Shown here one piece after another: positions 2,402 through 29,214 of a DNA stretch of 43,889 nucleotides; positions within the stretch are counted from its first letter, which is position 1, and each line of letters opens with the position of its first letter. The position numbers and the translations under genes were made by a program. A model generated the notes under the pieces. It was not told the DNA's origin and made no database searches. It saw nothing but the letters and a program-made list of their open reading frames with translations. Source of the DNA: a virus; IMG/VR virus record IMGVR_UViG_3300006155_000030; one strand, 5' to 3'.

Positions 2402-2484
2402 TTGAAGCGGCTGGAATCGAACCAACATCTACCCCATGAGTGATTAGCTATCTAGGGCGTTCTGTCCTTTTGAACTACGCTTCA
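2402..2484 (-). ncRNA. tRNA-like element T1 (canonical acceptor/D/T arms, 16-nt anticodon loop)
   Basis: Minus strand: TGAAGCG-TA-GTTC/AAAAGGACA/GAAC-G-CCCTA[GATAGCTAATCACTCA]TGGGG-TAGAT-GTTGG/TTCGATT/CCAGC-CGCTTCA. The 7-bp acceptor, GG D-loop and GGTTCGATTCC box are canonical. The loop closed by the 5-bp anticodon stem is 16 nt, so no anticodon can be assigned by hand. Confidence 0.55.
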
Positions 2485-2584: not shown

Positions 2585-2653
2585 TGCATCCGTGCGGAAT
2601 CGAACCGCCTTTACAGCGGGGTTTTATCCCCAGTTTCCATTACTGACGGATGC
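2585..2653 (-). ncRNA. tRNA-like element T2 (short, degenerate anticodon arm)
   Basis: Minus strand: GCATCCG-T-CAGT/AATGGAA/ACTG-GGG[ATAAAAC]CCC-GCTGTAAAG-GCGG/TTCGATT/CCGC-A-CGGATGC-A. The 7-bp acceptor and T-box are good. The anticodon stem is only 3-4 bp and the T stem 4 bp. Confidence 0.5.
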
Positions 2654-3854: not shown

Positions 3855-3888
3855 ATTGTACCGCAGTTTGGCGGGGTAGTTGTACCAA
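3855..3888 (-). promoter_or_regulatory. phage late-type promoter (TGGTACAA box + -10)
   Basis: Minus strand TTGGTACAACTACCCCGCCAAACTGCGGTACAAT: the box, then exactly 22 nt after TGGTA, then TACAAT. Intergenic. Confidence 0.6.
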
Positions 3889-3896
3889 GTTAAAGG

Positions 3897-4034
3897 CTAT
3901 TTCTTTTTGGAATCTCCGAAAATAGCATAGAAAATCAGAGTAAGCATTATGCCAATACTCCAAATCAAAACAACTGTTCCGCTGAACACCCAAAAACTGC
4001 TAAATATGTACTTTAAAATTTCCAACATTCCCAT
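3897..4034 (-). CDS. small membrane protein (45 aa), putative
   Basis: Hand-translated MGMLEILKYIFSSFWVFSGTVVLIWSIGIMLTLIFYAIFGDSKKK with a weak SD AAGGGA upstream. Below the track cutoff. Confidence 0.35.
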   Translation of the reverse strand: MGMLEILKYIFSSFWVFSGTVVLIWSIGIMLTLIFYAIFGDSKKK

Positions 4035-4124: not shown

Positions 4125-4640
4125 CTATATATTCTTAAAACTTTTTCTTATAGCAGCCAACCTTATTGCTTCTGGTTTTACACCAAATCTTTTTGCTAAC
4201 TGTGTTGTATTATAATTCTCTCTGTGATTATCATATAAATCTCTTATAATCAAAACGTCCTCGTTTTTCAATTTTGACTTATGGCTTTCTTCTCCAGATT
4301 TAACCATGCCATGTTCTACCGCATGTATTATATTTTCTTGATTTGTACACCATTCCAAATTATCAACACAATTATTTAGGATATTTCCGTCTATATGATT
4401 CACCATTGGCTTTCCAAGCTCATTTTCAATAAACGTTTCGGCAACAGCTTTATGGACTTTGATTGTTTTCTTGTTTTTCTTTGAGCCAAAAGTACCAGAA
4501 AAAGCATAATATCCTTGTGTATTAAAAGAAAGTTTTCTTATTCTTCCGTTAGTTGCATTTTTAACTCTTCCTTTGTTGGAAATTAAGTAATAATCTCCCA
4601 AATCCTTACCTTGATAGATAAGTCTTCTCCATTCCTCCAT
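4125..4640 (-). CDS. HNH homing endonuclease (NUMOD4 + HNH_3 type)
   Basis: 171 aa. WRRL..YYLISNKGRVKN (NUMOD4-like) is followed by VNHIDGNILNNCVDNLEWCTNQENIIHA (HNH_3 motif). SD GGAGGGATTATG. A/T-rich relative to its neighbours. Confidence 0.8.
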   Translation of the reverse strand: MEEWRRLIYQGKDLGDYYLISNKGRVKNATNGRIRKLSFNTQGYYAFSGTFGSKKNKKTIKVHKAVAETFIENELGKPMVNHIDGNILNNCVDNLEWCTNQENIIHAVEHGMVKSGEESHKSKLKNEDVLIIRDLYDNHRENYNTTQLAKRFGVKPEAIRLAAIRKSFKNI

Positions 4641-4675
4641 AATCCCTCCAATATACCATAAATACTGCGCAACAT

Positions 4676-4790
4676 TTGGAAGAATGGATTTGAACCATTA
4701 CCTAATAGCGTGCTCCCAACAGTCATAGAACGGAATCGAACCGCGATAACGTATCGTGCTCCCAATTACACCACTTCCAAACCTAATCTT
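4676..4790 (-). ncRNA. composite tRNA-like element T4
   Basis: TTGGAAG-TG-GTGT/AATTGGGA/GCAC-G-[54 nt]-AATGG/TTCAAAT/CCATT-CTTCCAA. The 54-nt insert contains a second TTGGGAGCACG (D-arm duplicate), a CGATA/CGT/TATCG hairpin and a second GGTTCGATTCC box. Confidence 0.5.
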
Positions 4791-4820
4791 TAATTTATAC
4801 ATGCGTCAACTACATGTTAA

Positions 4821-4934
4821 ATGGATAGGCAGGAATTGAACCTGCATATTAGGCACACTATAGCCACGGAGATTTGCACTCCTTTTCGTTTTGGTTAGCC
4901 TCCTACTCCGGCTCTACCATTAAGCTACTATCCA
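4821..4934 (-). ncRNA. expanded tRNA-like element T3
   Basis: TGGATAG-TA-GCTT/AATGGTA/GAGC-C-[64 nt]-GCAGG/TTCAATT/CCTGC-CTATCCA. The insert has three GGAG tracts competing for one CTCCG, an inner GGAG/TGCAAAT/CTCC hairpin and a GGC...GCC arm. Confidence 0.5.
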
Positions 4935-5158
4935 CTTTTGCACCGAATAGTCCCACACAGTTCACGGTGCTATGGTCTGCTTCCTGTAAGTCGCCGCCGT
5001 CCATCACGGATTTTACCCGTGTCGCTCTTTCAGACCTCTTACACTGTCCATTTTCTGTCTGCAAGGACTGTGCAGTTCCGAAGATGCGTTCCCTAACTTT
5101 TATATCCTGCAAAACAGGACAATCCAGAAAGTTCATTCATCTTGTACGGATTGATTGA
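4935..5158 (-). ncRNA. structured non-coding leader upstream of T3/T4
   Basis: ~220 nt between the late promoter and T3 with no SD-led ORF. Visible helices: 5105-5109/5115-5119, 5059-5063/5071-5075, 5005-5009/5017-5021, 4940-4945/4965-4970, and long-range 4974-4979/5031-5036. Confidence 0.45.
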
Positions 5159-5192
5159 ATTATACCATAATTCCAGAAATTATTTGTACCAA
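5159..5192 (-). promoter_or_regulatory. phage late-type promoter (TGGTACAA box + -10)
   Basis: Minus strand TTGGTACAAATAATTTCTGGAATTATGGTATAAT, with the same 22-nt geometry and a consensus TATAAT. It lies directly after terminator 5199-5224 and drives the non-coding region. Confidence 0.65.
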
Positions 5193-5198
5193 CTTAAA

Positions 5199-5224
5199 GC
5201 AAAAGAGCGGCATCACTGCCGCCC
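5199..5224 (-). terminator. Rho-independent terminator
   Basis: Minus strand GCGGCA-GTGA-TGCCGC followed by TCTTTTGCTTT, immediately after the stop of 5234..5779. Confidence 0.7.
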
Positions 5225-5233
5225 CTTGCAATA

Positions 5234-5779
5234 TTACATCTCTGCAATTTTCCTTGCCCAGTTCTGGATAATCTCCCTTTCCTCCCGACAGTCCGCATCC
5301 TTGAACATCTGTTTCATCATGCCATGCACGCCGGACATGAAATCTTCCAAAGCGTCAAGCATTCTGTTCTTCGTTCCATCATCCCGGCTGTTGGAGTATT
5401 CCATCTTCCGGCTACGGTACTCGTCCATGTCTGTATCATCACCAGACAGACGGGAATAGTTCGGGCGGTGAACATATCTGCCAGTGGTTGCGCTTCTGCC
5501 CCGGCGGTAAGAATTGCCGTTGTCGTAGTCGTTGGAGTAATTCCCCTCCCGGCTGTAATCGCCGTTACGGGAATACCCGCCACGCTCCCGGCTGTAATCC
5601 TCCATGTCCCGGCTGTAACCGTCCCTGGAATAACCGCCGCCGTCCTGCATCATTTCAATTTTATCCACGCCTTTCATAATCTCCACCAGCTTATAGGCGT
5701 TATCCAGGTTGGAAGAAGTCAAGCCTTTTTCCTCAATCGCTTTCAACTCTTTTTCTGCGTTTTCTCTCAATTTATGCAT
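5234..5779 (-). CDS. low-complexity protein with (G)YSR repeats
   Basis: 181 aa with SD GGGAGGGCTGATTATG. Helical ends flank a core of GGGYSRDGYSRDMEDYSRERGGYSRNGDYSREGNYS. The DNA shows repeated CCCGGCTGTAA(T/C)C units at about 5545-5625. Confidence 0.6.
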   Translation of the reverse strand: MHKLRENAEKELKAIEEKGLTSSNLDNAYKLVEIMKGVDKIEMMQDGGGYSRDGYSRDMEDYSRERGGYSRNGDYSREGNYSNDYDNGNSYRRGRSATTGRYVHRPNYSRLSGDDTDMDEYRSRKMEYSNSRDDGTKNRMLDALEDFMSGVHGMMKQMFKDADCREEREIIQNWARKIAEM

Positions 5780-8148: not shown

Positions 8149-8674
8149 TTCCTCCCTTACTTCTTGCACCGCCGCTTGATTTCTCTGTTCTCTTGGCTGT
8201 ATCGCCACTGTTATCAGCGGCATGAAAATTGTTCAACCGCTCCAAAATCTCCATGTATTTGCCCTGCAAAGCGTCATATTCCTTCCGTGTGACGTATTTA
8301 TCATCTAAGTTGATTTGCTCATTCTGTGGGGATTGTGGAACGCCCTGCGGTGTGTTATGTGTGCGCTCTTTATAGTCAAATATTTGAAGTGGCAGCGGAA
8401 TACCTGAAGCGTCTGCCGACTTGATATAAAAAACGGGGTTCTCACTGTCCATCAGCAATACGGACTGTCTGGCTCCCACCATCCAGCTTTTGGCTGCTGC
8501 CTCCCCTTGCACATATGCCCATGTCTGATTTGTTTGCGGCGGCTGCACTTCCTGTTGCATCTGTGGTAACTGGTATTGCTGTGCCTGCAACTGTGCGAGC
8601 CTGTCCATTGGCGGCTGCACTTGCAGCTGATAAGTATACGGGTAAGGTTGGGAAAACTGGTTCGGGTAAGCCAT
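8135..8674 (-). CDS. Pro/Gln-rich N-terminus protein, unknown function
   Basis: 179 aa with SD GGAGGAATCAGAGCATG. The N-terminus is MAYPNQFSQPYPYTYQLQVQPP..QQYQLPQMQQEVQPPQ, followed by a globular region WAYVQGEAAAKSWMV..VLLMDSENPVFYIKSADASG. Confidence 0.6.
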   Translation of the reverse strand: MAYPNQFSQPYPYTYQLQVQPPMDRLAQLQAQQYQLPQMQQEVQPPQTNQTWAYVQGEAAAKSWMVGARQSVLLMDSENPVFYIKSADASGIPLPLQIFDYKERTHNTPQGVPQSPQNEQINLDDKYVTRKEYDALQGKYMEILERLNNFHAADNSGDTAKRTEKSSGGARSKGGNANE

Positions 8675-17213: not shown

Positions 17214-17672
17214 CTAATTCAAAAATTCAAATATTTCAAACATCGCTCTTGCTTTATCTATTTCTTTGTTTCTCAGTAATTTCCTAAAAGCAATCATCAT
17301 TTCAATAGTTTCATAGTCTACAAATTGCGTTGCATTTGCTGACTTCCACCACCCTTCTACTCTTGGCAGATATTTGTTTATCCCCCACGTTGCTTTTACT
17401 TTGTTGTAATATCTCCACGTCTCGTAAAGTGCTATTAAATGGGCTTCAAACGCTTCCACTTCAGAACGGTTTTCACATTCAAAATACTGGATTTCCCAAT
17501 TTTTTCCGATGCACCATTCATCACGATAAGCATGATCCATTATTCGCTTTTCTAAATCTGATTTGTATACAATACCGATATATTTTATTATCCGATCTTC
17601 TGTGTCTATGTATCTGTATACGCATGGTTTTGTGTTGTTTATTTTACCACGTCTTGTATTTATCCTTGCCAT
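17214..17672 (-). CDS. GIY-YIG-like nuclease-fold protein
   Basis: Start at ATG 17672 (MARINTRRGK...), 2 nt after the radical-SAM stop. Contains CVYRYID..IKYIGIV (GIY-YIG-like), then R and E residues (..RSEVEAFEAHLI..). The track ORF's 65-aa N-terminal extension overlaps the upstream gene. Confidence 0.5.
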   Translation of the reverse strand: MARINTRRGKINNTKPCVYRYIDTEDRIIKYIGIVYKSDLEKRIMDHAYRDEWCIGKNWEIQYFECENRSEVEAFEAHLIALYETWRYYNKVKATWGINKYLPRVEGWWKSANATQFVDYETIEMMIAFRKLLRNKEIDKARAMFEIFEFLN

Positions 17673-17673
17673 A

Positions 17674-19002
17674 TCACCACATCTTTTCCACCTTTGCATA
17701 GGTTCTGATATTTCTTGTCGGGAGAGTATCGGGCGTAAACTCCCCAAACAGCGTATCAACGTCAAAATACTTCTCAAGCGTTGCCTGTTTGACTTTCGCG
17801 CTTGCAGACTGGAATTTGCTGCTGCAAGCCAGCTTAACAATATTATCCGCATCTTTTTCAGTTCCACGCCATATAATAGCCGATTGTATCACCGTGCTAA
17901 GGCTCTCCGTTGCCATGCTCTCAACTGCCCAAATAGAATTGCCCTGATAGAAGATATTTCCCTTATATCTCCCATGCCCTAATTTCTTTGCGATCATTCC
18001 ACGGTAATTCATGTATGACATAGGTTTGCAGGCTAAAGGAGTTGCCGGCATTGCCCTAAACGGTGTGCTATGCAACAATATGCTGGTCTGTTTTTGCGTC
18101 TTTGACAATCCGCTGTCAACAATCCGTATATCCTCGACAAATTCCTCCCAATCCTCAAAGGTTTCAGTCGGATAGCCGATAATGTTGTAAAATTTGACCT
18201 GATGCGGTTTCTCGCACTTTGCCAAACGCTCCAAAAACTCACGCAGCATATCCCTTGTGATTTTCTTGTTGACCATGAAACGGATGCGCTCTGACAAGCC
18301 GTCAATAGCGGTAGTCCGCAACTTAACAAGGTCAACATCAATCCCGTTGTGCATATCAATCATGGCTCGCTCACGGTCAACACCGCCGTTCCACAATCCA
18401 GAATAGTTAAATTCCTCCTGCGCCGCCTGTTTCCTGTGCCATGTATAACCGCAGAATAGGCATTTGTGATTGCAGCCAATAACATCTTCGTGATATGTTT
18501 GCCCGTTATCAAGCTGTATGTCATATGGATATATGCTATCAACCTGATTGATATAATACAGCTTATCCATGCTGAAGCTTTTGGAAGATACTATATGCTC
18601 GTCAACGCACTCCTCGTTGTCCAGTATGGCTTGCGCCATCTTATCTTGTATGCCCTCCGCTCTGCCAAGCACAAAGTAATCAACGTATTGCAAGAATGGG
18701 CAGGGATTTAACACCCCTTGCCCTCCCACGCATACTTTGTAATCGCCTTTCTGCCATGTGACACGTTCCGCAATAAATTCCCACCAATCGCAATCAGATG
18801 TAACGCTGTACATTACCATGTCAAATTTATGCACCGTTGCCGCACTGCAATAGTCAATGTTGGAAAATCCGGCACGCTTCAGTATGTCGCATACAACCGC
18901 CATGCCAGCGTTAAGGCGCACATTATAACATTCTTTGCTATATGTCTGCTTTGCGTACTTATTCAGCACATATATACCGATTTTAAGATTATCCTTATCC
19001 AT
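17674..19002 (-). CDS. radical SAM enzyme with N-terminal B12-binding-like domain (class B-like)
   Basis: 442 aa with CNHKCLFC (C177/C181/C184 = CxxxCxxC) after a ~170-aa Rossmann-like N-terminal region. This architecture resembles B12-binding-domain radical SAM proteins. Confidence 0.7.
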   Translation of the reverse strand: MDKDNLKIGIYVLNKYAKQTYSKECYNVRLNAGMAVVCDILKRAGFSNIDYCSAATVHKFDMVMYSVTSDCDWWEFIAERVTWQKGDYKVCVGGQGVLNPCPFLQYVDYFVLGRAEGIQDKMAQAILDNEECVDEHIVSSKSFSMDKLYYINQVDSIYPYDIQLDNGQTYHEDVIGCNHKCLFCGYTWHRKQAAQEEFNYSGLWNGGVDRERAMIDMHNGIDVDLVKLRTTAIDGLSERIRFMVNKKITRDMLREFLERLAKCEKPHQVKFYNIIGYPTETFEDWEEFVEDIRIVDSGLSKTQKQTSILLHSTPFRAMPATPLACKPMSYMNYRGMIAKKLGHGRYKGNIFYQGNSIWAVESMATESLSTVIQSAIIWRGTEKDADNIVKLACSSKFQSASAKVKQATLEKYFDVDTLFGEFTPDTLPTRNIRTYAKVEKMW

Positions 19003-19623: not shown

Positions 19624-20496
19624 TTAGATGCTAGATTTATGATTTTGGCATTCCATACCACATTTATTTTCTGTCGCCTTTATCATAATTTCGTCTATTG
19701 GCATTGAGAGGTAATCGTATTGATTGGAGCAGTTCGCATATGCTGCATCAGAACATCCGAAAGTCATGCCATCACATCGAATAAATAAAGTGCCGTACCA
19801 TGAGTTACACGCGAAATGAGGAGAATACCAAACATGATTATTGATATTTGGGTCATAACTTTTTTCAAACGCAAAATTTTTATAAAACATTGGTATTCTA
19901 AGAGCTGTTTTTCCCTTTGTTAATTTCGGTATTAAACGTTTGCAAAAATCTCTGTATTCATTATCTTCCATAATTAAATCATATCGCATTTTTGCTGCAC
20001 CCTGCGGGTAAATCGGATTAACAATTACAGAAATTCCATCATTTGATAAATCTATTATTTCACGCATTGCATCTTCGATGTTATTTTTGGAAACATTTTC
20101 GACTATTTCAATTTCGCAATTTCCAATAAATCCGCTCAAATCTGGTAAATTAGTTCCTGGATCGTGCGAAATTCTAAATCTATTGAAATTGTGAGATAGT
20201 ATATCTGATTTATATTTTTGCAGATTTATACCATTACTGAGAAAAGCTAACCCGTTCGGCATCTTATTCCAGGTGGAACTCAAATAATCCAACAGCAAAA
20301 ACATTTCTTCGTCATACAATGGTTCTTTTCCGAAAAAATATAACAAAAGGTTATGAGGTTCTGGAAAATCTTTTTTTATTTTATCTATAATTTTACATTT
20401 CTGTTCAAATGACAATTCCCTATACCTACAATCACCTACAAAACAATATTCACAATTTTTATTGCATTTATCGTTAAATCCCCATGATATTATCAT
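19624..20496 (-). CDS. radical SAM enzyme with C-terminal Cys-rich (SPASM/twitch-like) region
   Basis: 290 aa with CNKNCEYC at residues 11-18 and C-terminal ..ACNSWYGTLFIRCDGMTFGCSDAAYANC..CGMECQNH. Markedly A/T-rich DNA. First gene after the late promoter at 20549-20582. Confidence 0.75.
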   Translation of the reverse strand: MIISWGFNDKCNKNCEYCFVGDCRYRELSFEQKCKIIDKIKKDFPEPHNLLLYFFGKEPLYDEEMFLLLDYLSSTWNKMPNGLAFLSNGINLQKYKSDILSHNFNRFRISHDPGTNLPDLSGFIGNCEIEIVENVSKNNIEDAMREIIDLSNDGISVIVNPIYPQGAAKMRYDLIMEDNEYRDFCKRLIPKLTKGKTALRIPMFYKNFAFEKSYDPNINNHVWYSPHFACNSWYGTLFIRCDGMTFGCSDAAYANCSNQYDYLSMPIDEIMIKATENKCGMECQNHKSSI

Positions 20497-28023: not shown

Positions 28024-28179
28024 AAGAAAAAACCGCCCGGCGCTACCAACACCGAACGGCTTACATAGATACCAGAAGATGATACCTACAACCCAAAAAT
28101 ATTGTATCATCTTCGGGGGCGGCTTGCAAGCGGATTTCCCGCAGGCTGTTATTTTTTTACAAAAAAGGAGGATGATACC

Positions 28180-29214
28180 ATGGCAACAGCAAAAAAACTA
28201 CCGTCCGGCAACTGGCGCTGCCAAGTCTACGATTACACGGACGGAGCTGGGAAACGGCATTACAAGTCCTTTACGGCCGCCACGAAAAGGGGAGCGGAGC
28301 ATCTGGCCGCAGAATACGCCGACACAAAAAAGGAGCGGCCGCAGCCGCTTAAGGTGACAGTGGGCAAGGCGCTGGATAATTATATCAATATCAAAAGCAA
28401 TGTATTATCCCCCAGCACGGTAAGGGGGTACCGCGCGATGAGAAGCAGCAACTATTCCGATATCGAAGATATCCTGCTGGAAGACCTCACGCAGGAAGTG
28501 GTGCAGATATGGGCAAACTCCTTGGCTGCAAAGAAAAATGCCAAAACGGTTAAAAACGCCCATGGGCTGCTGTCGGCCATGCTCTCCGTGTATATGCCAG
28601 ATTTCATGCTCCGTACCGCCCTTCCGAAAAAGCAGAAGGAAGTGCCGTACATACCAACAGAAAGCGATATAAGGCTCATAATGGAGTTTTTCAAGGAAAA
28701 GGATACAGAAATGCTTAAGGCGGTTTACCTGGCCGCGTTCGGCACGCTGCGGCGTTCAGAGATATGCGGGTTGACCGGGGAAGATATAGAGGGGAATGTG
28801 ATCCACGTCCACTCGGCTGTTGTTATGGATGATTCGGCTAACTGGATCAAAAAAAATACAAAAACATCTTCCAGCGACAGATATATACCTCTTCCAGATT
28901 TCGTAATCGATGCGCTGCCAAAAAGCGGCAATGTAGTTCTAATTGAACCTTCCAAAATATCTGCACGGTTTTCGTCCGCATTGAAAAGACTTTCCATACC
29001 TCATTTCCGCTTCCATGATTTGCGCCATTATTCGGCCAGCATCATGCACGCGATCGGCATCCCGGATCAATATATCATGCAGCGGGGCGGTTGGAGTTCG
29101 GATGGGGTTTTAAAATCAATTTACCGCAATACCATGGACGATTACGCCAAAAAATTTAGCAGCCAGATCAACGATTATTTTAAAAATGCAACACAAAATA
29201 TCACACAAGAATAG
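28180..29214 (+). CDS. int: tyrosine integrase
   Basis: Start at ATG 28180 (MATAKKLPSGNWRCQVY) with SD AAAAGGAGGA. The C-terminal catalytic region is LRRSE..HFRFHDLRHY..GGWSS..LKSIYRN (R..HxxR..Y). Confidence 0.9.
   Translation: MATAKKLPSGNWRCQVYDYTDGAGKRHYKSFTAATKRGAEHLAAEYADTKKERPQPLKVTVGKALDNYINIKSNVLSPSTVRGYRAMRSSNYSDIEDILLEDLTQEVVQIWANSLAAKKNAKTVKNAHGLLSAMLSVYMPDFMLRTALPKKQKEVPYIPTESDIRLIMEFFKEKDTEMLKAVYLAAFGTLRRSEICGLTGEDIEGNVIHVHSAVVMDDSANWIKKNTKTSSSDRYIPLPDFVIDALPKSGNVVLIEPSKISARFSSALKRLSIPHFRFHDLRHYSASIMHAIGIPDQYIMQRGGWSSDGVLKSIYRNTMDDYAKKFSSQINDYFKNATQNITQE

Follow-up and report, generated by a model that had tools for sequence, protein, structure and literature searches.

A viral DNA stretch of 43,889 nucleotides (nt) from the IMG/VR record IMGVR_UViG_3300006155_000030, referred to here in its full length as the window, carries on its minus strand two oversized modules, T3 and T4, that have the top half of a transfer RNA (tRNA) and no recognisable anticodon arm. 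The reading that we favour, with modest confidence, is that T3 and T4 are tRNA-derived, non-decoding RNAs of a phage RNA island, matured by ribonuclease (RNase) P and RNase Z in the manner of the t-elements of plant mitochondria. RNase P would cut the leader transcript where each module begins, and RNase Z after the discriminator, freeing stable tRNA-shaped RNAs of about 106-114 nt that would probably be given CCA; the same cuts would set the ends of the flanking RNAs, as they do for plant-mitochondrial t-elements.

Arms and middles of T3 and T4

T3 combines a 7-base-pair (bp) acceptor (TGGATAG/CTATCCA) with the D arm GCTT-AATGGTA-GAGC and the T arm GCAGG-TTCAATT-CCTGC. The acceptor of T4 is TTGGAAG/CTTCCAA, its D arm GTGT-AATTGGGA-GCAC and its T arm AATGG-TTCAAAT-CCATT. 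Both modules have what makes up the top half of a tRNA, namely a 7-bp acceptor on a T arm with a 5-bp stem and a TPsiC-type loop, and a D arm with GG in its loop; the elbow is intact and a discriminator is retained. The discriminator of T3 is U, and CCA is not encoded. Matches to the Rfam tRNA model exceed its gathering score of 29 (E about 1e-7 for T3 and for T4; Table 1), the skipped nucleotides being local insertions in the anticodon region. The modules measure 114 and 106 nt, compared with about 70-95 nt for a canonical decoding tRNA.

In T3, the stretch between the D and T arms takes the place that the anticodon arm and the variable loop have in a tRNA, and the anticodon region is expanded by some 40 nt. 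It holds three GGAG tracts, a single CTCCG, an inner GGAG-TGCAAAT-CTCC hairpin and a GGC..GCC arm, and it probably folds as a CGGAG/CUCCG stem that closes a 34-nt loop, together with the GGC/GCC arm. In the middle of T4, 11 nt are duplicated (TTGGGAGCACG), the GGTTCGATTCC box occurs for a second time, and there is a hairpin CGATA-CGT-TATCG; a further T hairpin (CGG-UUCGAUU-CCG) and another copy of the D loop and 3′ D stem (UUGGGAGCACG) lie there as well. The original prediction for this region had listed the stems of both modules, the tracts, hairpin and arm of the T3 middle, and the duplicate, box and hairpin of the T4 middle, and all of these are found in the sequence. It had also given 64 and 54 nt for the two middles; they are oversized as claimed, but their lengths are 65 nt in T3 and 56 nt in T4. 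Likewise, T4 had been recognised correctly as a module but starts at 4780 rather than 4790, with its discriminator at 4675.

No canonical anticodon loop had seemed drawable for either module, and this is borne out by an exhaustive scan of both inserts: nowhere does a 5-bp stem enclose a 7-nt loop that has U33 together with a purine at position 37. The one sequence that comes near, UGGCU-AUAGUGU-GCCUA, lies in T3 and contains a C-C mismatch as well as two wobble pairs. ARAGORN in its default mode called no tRNA or transfer-messenger RNA (tmRNA) anywhere in the window; the contrary outcome that had been foreseen, in which standard finders call ordinary tRNAs here, did not arise. The T box itself is strongly enriched: GGTTCRAWTCC occurs five times in the window, all on the minus (gene) strand, against 0.15 expected. 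One copy lies in T3, two in T4, one in a third module at 2402-2484 and one in a minihelix at 2585-2653.

Variation among related phages

T4 was found in three lineages, represented by the window with L087 and L091, by L089, and by L096 with L097 (L numbers denote the loci compared). Their acceptors are UUGGAAG/CUUCCAA versus UGUGCGG/CCGCACA, and their T stems are AAUGG/CCAUU, GCAGG/CCUGU and GAAGG/CCUUU. In the acceptor and T stems, 80 of 80 pair cells are standard, as against 40-57% in slid controls, and six of the 12 pairs (four in the acceptor and two in the T stem) are compensatory, with both sides changed. Three other helices of T4 were considered and rejected. The local hairpin CGAUA-CGU-UAUCG loses one pair without compensation in the L089 type; an inner minihelix of stem plus T arm is suggested by the L089/L096 fold, but the window copy breaks two of its pairs; and an anticodon-like helix (AUA-CG/CG-C-UAU versus UUA-GU/AC-G-UAA) was not counted, because its apparent compensation requires a register shifted by 2 nt.

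Inside T4, a block of about 45 nt is almost invariant; it consists of the first UUGGGAGCACG, about 11 nt, the inner T hairpin, UUYUAUGACUG and the second UUGGGAGCA. Since this block is bracketed by an 11-nt direct repeat and only 9-13 nt separate D arm from T arm on either side of it, T4 looks like the product of fusing or duplicating two tRNA-like units from which the anticodon arm was already missing. Two T arms within one frame are also seen in modules of unrelated sequence (L090 315-403; L002 about 8515-8580). The invariance of the T4 insert hints that it may be a cargo with a function of its own.

DNA-pattern scans located T3 in 14 loci, six of them Lachnospiraceae genomes or metagenome-assembled genomes (MAGs). 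Its nine distinct sequences are 93-98% identical where the flanking phage genes are 66-93% identical, and it has at least five different sets of neighbours: on the 5′ side the leader directly or either version of the S module described below, and on the 3′ side T4, the trailing element or other modules. In every case the limits of T3 are those of its acceptor, which marks it as a discrete cassette. Nine of its 12 variable columns fall in the 65-nt middle and three in the 49-nt frame. The outer CGGAG/CUCCG pairing shows one break and the inner GGAG/CUCC hairpin two, so that the outer one is slightly better supported; the variants contain no informative covariation. L096 and L097 have in the T3 slot a module with T3's acceptor but a different body, followed by a T4-like module. 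A comparison of the window with L091 or L090 shows a single substitution in the 40-nt spacer between T3 and T4.

A wider survey covered 97 loci (885 kb) with 99 distinct T-box contexts. At least four of the five T-stem pairs are present in 97 of these contexts, and 54 have a perfect 7/7 acceptor, compared with a mean of 16 and a maximum of 23 in shuffled controls. Default ARAGORN calls of a tRNA or tmRNA cover only 14 of the 99, leaving 85 as non-canonical. More distant relatives, which share a 164-amino-acid (aa) marker protein at about 74% identity, have acceptor-plus-T-arm minihelices of 44-60 nt between their genes; among these, at least one change in the acceptor is compensatory. In this phage group, then, it is the top half of the tRNA that is maintained, sometimes with the elbow and sometimes without it, and not the anticodon domain.

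An example of these minihelices is GGCAAGC-12 nt-CGGGG-UUCGAUU-CCCCG-GCUUGCU in L009 (5540-6110), and similar ones occur in many of L006-L082. A second minihelix type follows a terminator-like hairpin and has the same stem sequence with its strands swapped (GCUUGC/GCAAGC).

Proposed maturation and competing explanations

Plant-mitochondrial t-elements, non-canonical cloverleaves with a GGTTCRANYCC box, are substrates of RNase P and RNase Z, and the cuts fix the ends of mRNAs (PMC1920247, Forner et al. 2007). T3 and T4 resemble them in sequence features and setting: the GGTTCRANYCC box is set in a non-canonical cloverleaf with an acceptor-like stem, and the modules lie on the sense strand beside mRNAs, in what would be a longer transcript. 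Their leader belongs to the late-region operon and has the strand of the window's genes. A terminator scan found none from the island promoter to the downstream genes, from which we infer that T3 and T4 lie in a co-transcribed leader. RNase Z prefers U at position 74. The bacterial enzyme is inhibited by C or CCA after the discriminator (PMC7479834); CCA is encoded in none of 92 modules, and position 74 is U in 68 of them (74%) and C in four. Among the possibilities raised in the original prediction, tRNA-shaped processing signals are thus the best-supported function, given the co-oriented leader free of terminators, the intact acceptor, T arm and elbow, the lack of CCA and the frequent U74.

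Several observations weigh against a t-element-like role. In vitro, the RNase Z of B. subtilis left intron-containing and arm-less pre-tRNAs uncut (PMC7479834), and hence 3′ processing of substrates of the T3/T4 type is not assured. Punctuation needs one module only, yet the islands carry several in series. Over all loci, only 111 of the 171 nearest flanking open reading frames (ORFs; 65%) share the strand of the module, and of the 92 modules 13 overlap with ORFs of 100 aa or longer. The covariation of T4 rests on three lineages only, and the variable sites of T3 are too few to show selection. Nor could the high identity of T3 be accepted as a sign of selection: it sits in a 412-nt block that is 98% identical between the window and L091, and since the unstructured spacer in this block is equally conserved, conservation of T3 is inseparable from recent spread of the cassette.

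A non-structured spacer conserved as much as T3 and T4 would also fit an origin that we regard as unlikely but as a serious rival, in which illegitimate or endonuclease-stimulated recombination among tandem phage tRNA genes yielded chimeric pseudogenes, functionless by-products that were tolerated and spread recently. An 11-nt direct repeat of the kind typical of duplication or recombination flanks T4, an HNH homing endonuclease adjoins, the islands are heavily mosaic, and T3 offers no informative covariation against it. Of the two parts of an earlier suggestion, that these are degenerate or recombined tRNA genes, recombination has gained support from the direct repeats around T4, the varied neighbours of the T3 cassette and the canonical tRNAs in equivalent slots of relatives. 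Simple degeneration is unsupported for T4, because its outer stems covary; the absence of compensatory changes in relatives, which had been named as grounds for doubt, was not what the alignment gave. Functionless by-products are, moreover, hard to reconcile with T4 acceptor and T stems that change at six of 12 pairs between lineages and yet stay 100% paired. Random decay should hit every arm, but nearly all non-canonical modules have perfect acceptor and T helices and only the anticodon region is lost. The streamlined 44-nt minihelices of distant relatives, with their compensatory changes, point the same way.

It is decidedly unlikely, in our view, that T3 and T4 act in trans as tRNA mimics, with the tRNA frame as a scaffold for processing and stability and the RNA either drawing away, as a decoy or sponge, some host factor that recognises acceptor and elbow, or presenting its conserved insert to a partner. 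The same doubt applies to the broader proposal that Lachnospiraceae phages have an undescribed class of anticodon-less tRNA-shaped RNAs, from 44-nt minihelices to 106-115-nt forms, arranged with true tRNAs and a tmRNA in fast-recombining cassette islands, that would be matured by RNase P and RNase Z and serve as trans decoys or sponges. Possible targets of such decoys are abortive-infection toxins of the AbiEii/MenT type, which modify acceptor ends, or tRNA-processing or tRNA-modifying enzymes. Action in trans would suit the near invariance of the T4 insert within a variable scaffold, the presence of several modules in series, the fast turnover of repertoires between close relatives, as in an arms race, the recurrence of the double-T-arm design in unrelated sequences, and the retention of an elbow that minimal RNase P substrates do not need. 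However, a search of the phage for antisense targets of the inserts gave nothing above chance level, their conservation could reflect recent transfer, and no phage precedent was found in the literature. Two specific functions were rejected. For an antisense regulator, the best complement of the T3 insert is 11 nt and that of the T4 insert is only another T box, both within the range of shuffled inserts; for a Shine-Dalgarno mimic, every one of the three GGAG tracts of T3 is missing in at least one variant.

ARAGORN in intron mode calls T3 a tRNA-Leu(CAA) with a 27-nt intron and T4 a tRNA-Gly(UCC) with a 13-nt intron, but intron-bearing decoding tRNAs are very improbable here. The introns would lie at positions 32/33 in T3 and 34/35 in T4, not at 37/38, the site at or near which bulge-helix-bulge introns of archaea and eukaryotes are expected. 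Excision would leave T3 with the loop UACAAAU, which has A33, and no 27-nt excision restores U33; in T4 it would leave an anticodon stem with a C-C mismatch and an unstructured 'variable loop' of about 30 nt. The D arm of T3 is of type I, unlike that of a tRNA-Leu. Group I introns, at about 200 nt or more, are much longer than the inserts, and Rfam gave no match to one; neither a splicing endonuclease nor an RNA ligase is among the 30 Pfam-annotated ORFs of the window. We know of no tRNA splicing endonuclease in bacteria.

That T3 and T4 are domains of one large ornate RNA across the island, of the GOLLD, ROOL or tmRNA-like kind, has as little probability. The island is a contiguous structured non-coding region of about 500 nt with a conserved leader and S module, and relatives have a tmRNA in the same island. 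However, modules are gained and lost independently in relatives and are therefore separable units, and Rfam searches of the whole window (E<=1) and of 4655-5165 (E<=10) returned tRNA matches only, with no ribozymes, riboswitches or group I introns. The models of GOLLD, ROOL and tmRNA matched nothing in the window, not even when the island was searched by itself at E<=10, which leaves the earlier idea of membership in a large known RNA without support. A mini-tmRNA reading of T3 (GCU AAC CAA ... UAG, a 13-codon frame) was also rejected, as the module has G3:C70 instead of G3:U70, mostly non-synonymous substitutions and no match to the tmRNA model. The same holds for a phage attachment site (attP) that copies the 3′ end of a host tRNA: in CP143549 (L093) T3 lies inside a prophage with phage genes on both sides, the integrase gene of the window (28102-29214) is about 23 kb off, and both acceptor strands are present.

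The islands, their neighbours and known counterparts

Table 1. Features of the two RNA islands and their immediate surroundings in the window.
Feature	Position	Strand	Remarks
T3, 114-nt tRNA-like module	4821..4934	-	Rfam tRNA model 42.5 bits with 61 nt skipped
T4, 106-nt tRNA-like module	4675..4780	-	Rfam tRNA model 42.2 bits with 44 nt skipped; discriminator at 4675
T3-T4 spacer, 40 nt	4781..4820	-	kept wherever T4 or the L090 module comes after T3
Upstream-gene terminator hairpin and U-run (GGGGCGGCAgtgaTGCCGCTCTTTTGC)	5198..5225	-	island start; read by eye; kept in all island-bearing relatives
Extended -10 promoter box TGgTATAAT	5159..5167	-	predicted island promoter; read directly from sequence; relatives keep TGnTATnAT
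Leader hairpin/pseudoknot candidate CUGCA-CAGUCCU-UGCAG-ACAGAAAAUGGAC	5044..5075	-	conserved; directly abuts T3 in L090, L092 and L095
S module, structured, about 109 nt	4935..5043	-	directly 5′ of T3; optional, absent in L090, L092 and L095
Trailing element, first 11 nt (TGTTGCGCAGT)	4664..4674	-	conserved; split by HNH gene, continues at about 4125-4043
HNH/NUMOD4 homing-endonuclease gene	4125..4640	-	Pfam NUMOD4 and HNH_3; PHROG 59 at 7.9e-40
Third non-canonical tRNA-like module, 83 nt, 16-nt 'anticodon loop'	2402..2484	-	Rfam tRNA 44.2 bits; just upstream of scaffold gene
Acceptor-plus-T-arm minihelix, 69 nt	2585..2653	-	GCAUCCG...GGCGG-UUCGAUU-CCGCA-CGGAUGC-A; no D stem, no anticodon arm

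Protein annotation of the window ORFs describes a temperate, siphovirus-like phage, complete in the window, with genes for an integrase, an S24 repressor, a GH25 lysin, the large terminase, a minor capsid protein, a scaffold protein, a major head protein and a head-tail adaptor. The six T3 loci that are Lachnospiraceae genomes or MAGs point to a host among the Lachnospiraceae of the gut. T3 and T4 are placed between the gene at 5234-5779 and the HNH/NUMOD4 gene, and the order on the minus strand is upstream-gene terminator, extended -10 box, leader hairpin, S module, T3, spacer, T4, the start of the trailing element and the HNH gene. The -10 box receives no score in a simple -35/-10 scan, and the upstream terminator hairpin is absent from the listing of the terminator scan. 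Between T3 and T4, a lone 9/12 promoter match was dismissed as no better than chance. A distant blastn search with a 651-nt region against 50,697 phage records gave no match.

The HNH gene is inserted into the trailing element just 3′ of T4, and relatives have no HNH gene at this site. The trailing element (GTTGCGTAGTCGCTCTACGC...) is unsplit in L091, L092, L094 and L095, and the gene interrupts the window copy. Elsewhere in the window there are a weak GIY-YIG ORF (17214-17867) and two ORFs with a radical-SAM domain (17674-19002 and 19624-20496).

Upstream of T3, the GUCC of the leader loop could pair with a downstream GGAC to form a candidate H-type pseudoknot; the pairing is GCCC/GGGC in L096 and L097, and one of the two leader copies of L084 is uncompensated. 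The S module exists in two diverged versions that, folded separately, have one architecture, with an outer 6-bp helix that is GGUCUG/CAGACC in one and GAUACC/GGUAUC in the other; a CCGU-N5-ACGG hairpin, a 3′ hairpin and a CAAAAG tail are shared. Neither the leader at 5044-5075 nor the S module has an Rfam match, and the S module may be an unrecognised structured RNA motif.

A second island at about 2330-2700 on the minus strand has variable contents between conserved junctions, on the left GCGUCUGCCC...GGGCGGGCGC (a hairpin) and on the right TACCCCGGCAGTGG.... Its slot holds the 83-nt module in the window, two canonical tRNAs (69 and 67 bits) in L090, two tRNA-Ser genes in L093 and L005, and mixtures in L091 and L094; the true tRNAs in the same slots of relatives are Ile, Gln, Ser and Trp. 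Other contents of such slots among the relatives are a tmRNA, acceptor-plus-T-arm minihelices of 44-60 nt and further non-canonical tRNA-like modules. Homologues of the 2585-2653 minihelix with other internal lengths occur in L002, L005 and L090. A phage tmRNA is present in the RNA island of L002 (8772-9078; 92.5 bits) and L003 (6483-6786; 95 bits), and none in the window. In L002, the minihelix homologue comes directly after the tmRNA.

Further observations concern individual loci. L083 has a canonical tRNA with anticodon UAU (3866-3939; 74.8 bits) about 230 nt upstream of a non-canonical sibling (4169-4247), which combines nearly the same acceptor and T arm as that tRNA with the D arm of T3 and a non-standard middle of 30 nt. 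A C1-A72 mismatch occurs in this sibling and in the T3 variants of L084-L086. The int-alpA RNA motif scores above its gathering threshold (39-46 bits) upstream of the island in L005 (3843-3907), L093 (5522-5586) and L095 (4396-4461), and a type II hammerhead ribozyme at L012 8194-8260 scores 31.1 bits, below the gathering score of 37.

Standard annotation misses modules of this kind, as is evident from the blank ARAGORN result in the window and the 14 of 99 contexts called in the phage group. Finders in intron mode, in turn, mis-call them as Leu, Gly or Glu tRNAs, which calls for caution with virome tRNA counts. If they are processing signals, they would extend to phage operons a tRNA punctuation known so far chiefly from organelles. 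Should they act in trans, they would constitute a new class of phage tRNA mimics of relevance to tRNA-targeting defence systems; as decoys they would amount to RNA-based counter-defence, or else to a natural 'tRNA scaffold' for functional inserts. The question is open to experiment, since T3 is present in a sequenced isolate, Lachnospiraceae bacterium JLR.KK009 (CP143549); the isolate MGBC000121 has both T3 and T4.

Among known systems, engineered tRNA scaffolds, mascRNA of MALAT1 and the TMERs of MHV68 use a tRNA-shaped frame to attract RNase P and RNase Z, and the RNA attached to it is thereby stabilised or set free. T3 and T4 resemble the engineered scaffolds in having a cargo in place of the anticodon arm, for which these scaffolds and mascRNA are the closest analogues; unlike T3 and T4, these systems are eukaryotic, viral-eukaryotic or artificial. 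The mascRNA has been described as such a tRNA-shaped frame (PMC11693755). Our literature search found no description of phage modules like T3 and T4, nor a natural bacteriophage example of a tRNA scaffold. With tmRNA the modules share a tRNA-like domain of acceptor and T arm interrupted by a large insert, but they are three times smaller, have a normal D stem, and lack G3:U70, pseudoknots, a credible tag frame and a match to the tmRNA model.

Canonical phage tRNA clusters with homing endonucleases, such as the T5 tRNA region, consist of tandem tRNA genes with mosaic content and inserted HNH genes. The islands described here are likewise made of tandem modules, are mosaic between relatives, have an HNH insertion and hold true tRNAs in the slots of relatives; in contrast to such clusters, none of the four modules in the window can decode. 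A looser analogue is provided by RNAC and RNAD of bacteriophage T4, the 'species 1 and 2' stable RNAs, which are encoded within the tRNA cluster of that phage and have tRNA-like ends. They too are phage small RNAs that exceed tRNA size among phage tRNA genes, although they have no detectable sequence relationship to the modules and belong to a phage with a host of another phylum. They are small RNAs of unknown function (PMC9697503).

The t-elements of plant mitochondria differ from the modules in that they belong to an organelle, are small and mostly occur singly; T3 and T4 are encoded by a phage, have a full D arm and elbow and middles of 56-65 nt, lie in islands of several modules, and are predicted processing substrates. 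Cuts at t-elements sometimes leave a stable t-element RNA (PMC1920247). Like the t-elements, T3 and T4 have a T box and an acceptor-like stem in a non-canonical cloverleaf, and would lie inside longer transcripts beside mRNAs (PMC1920247).

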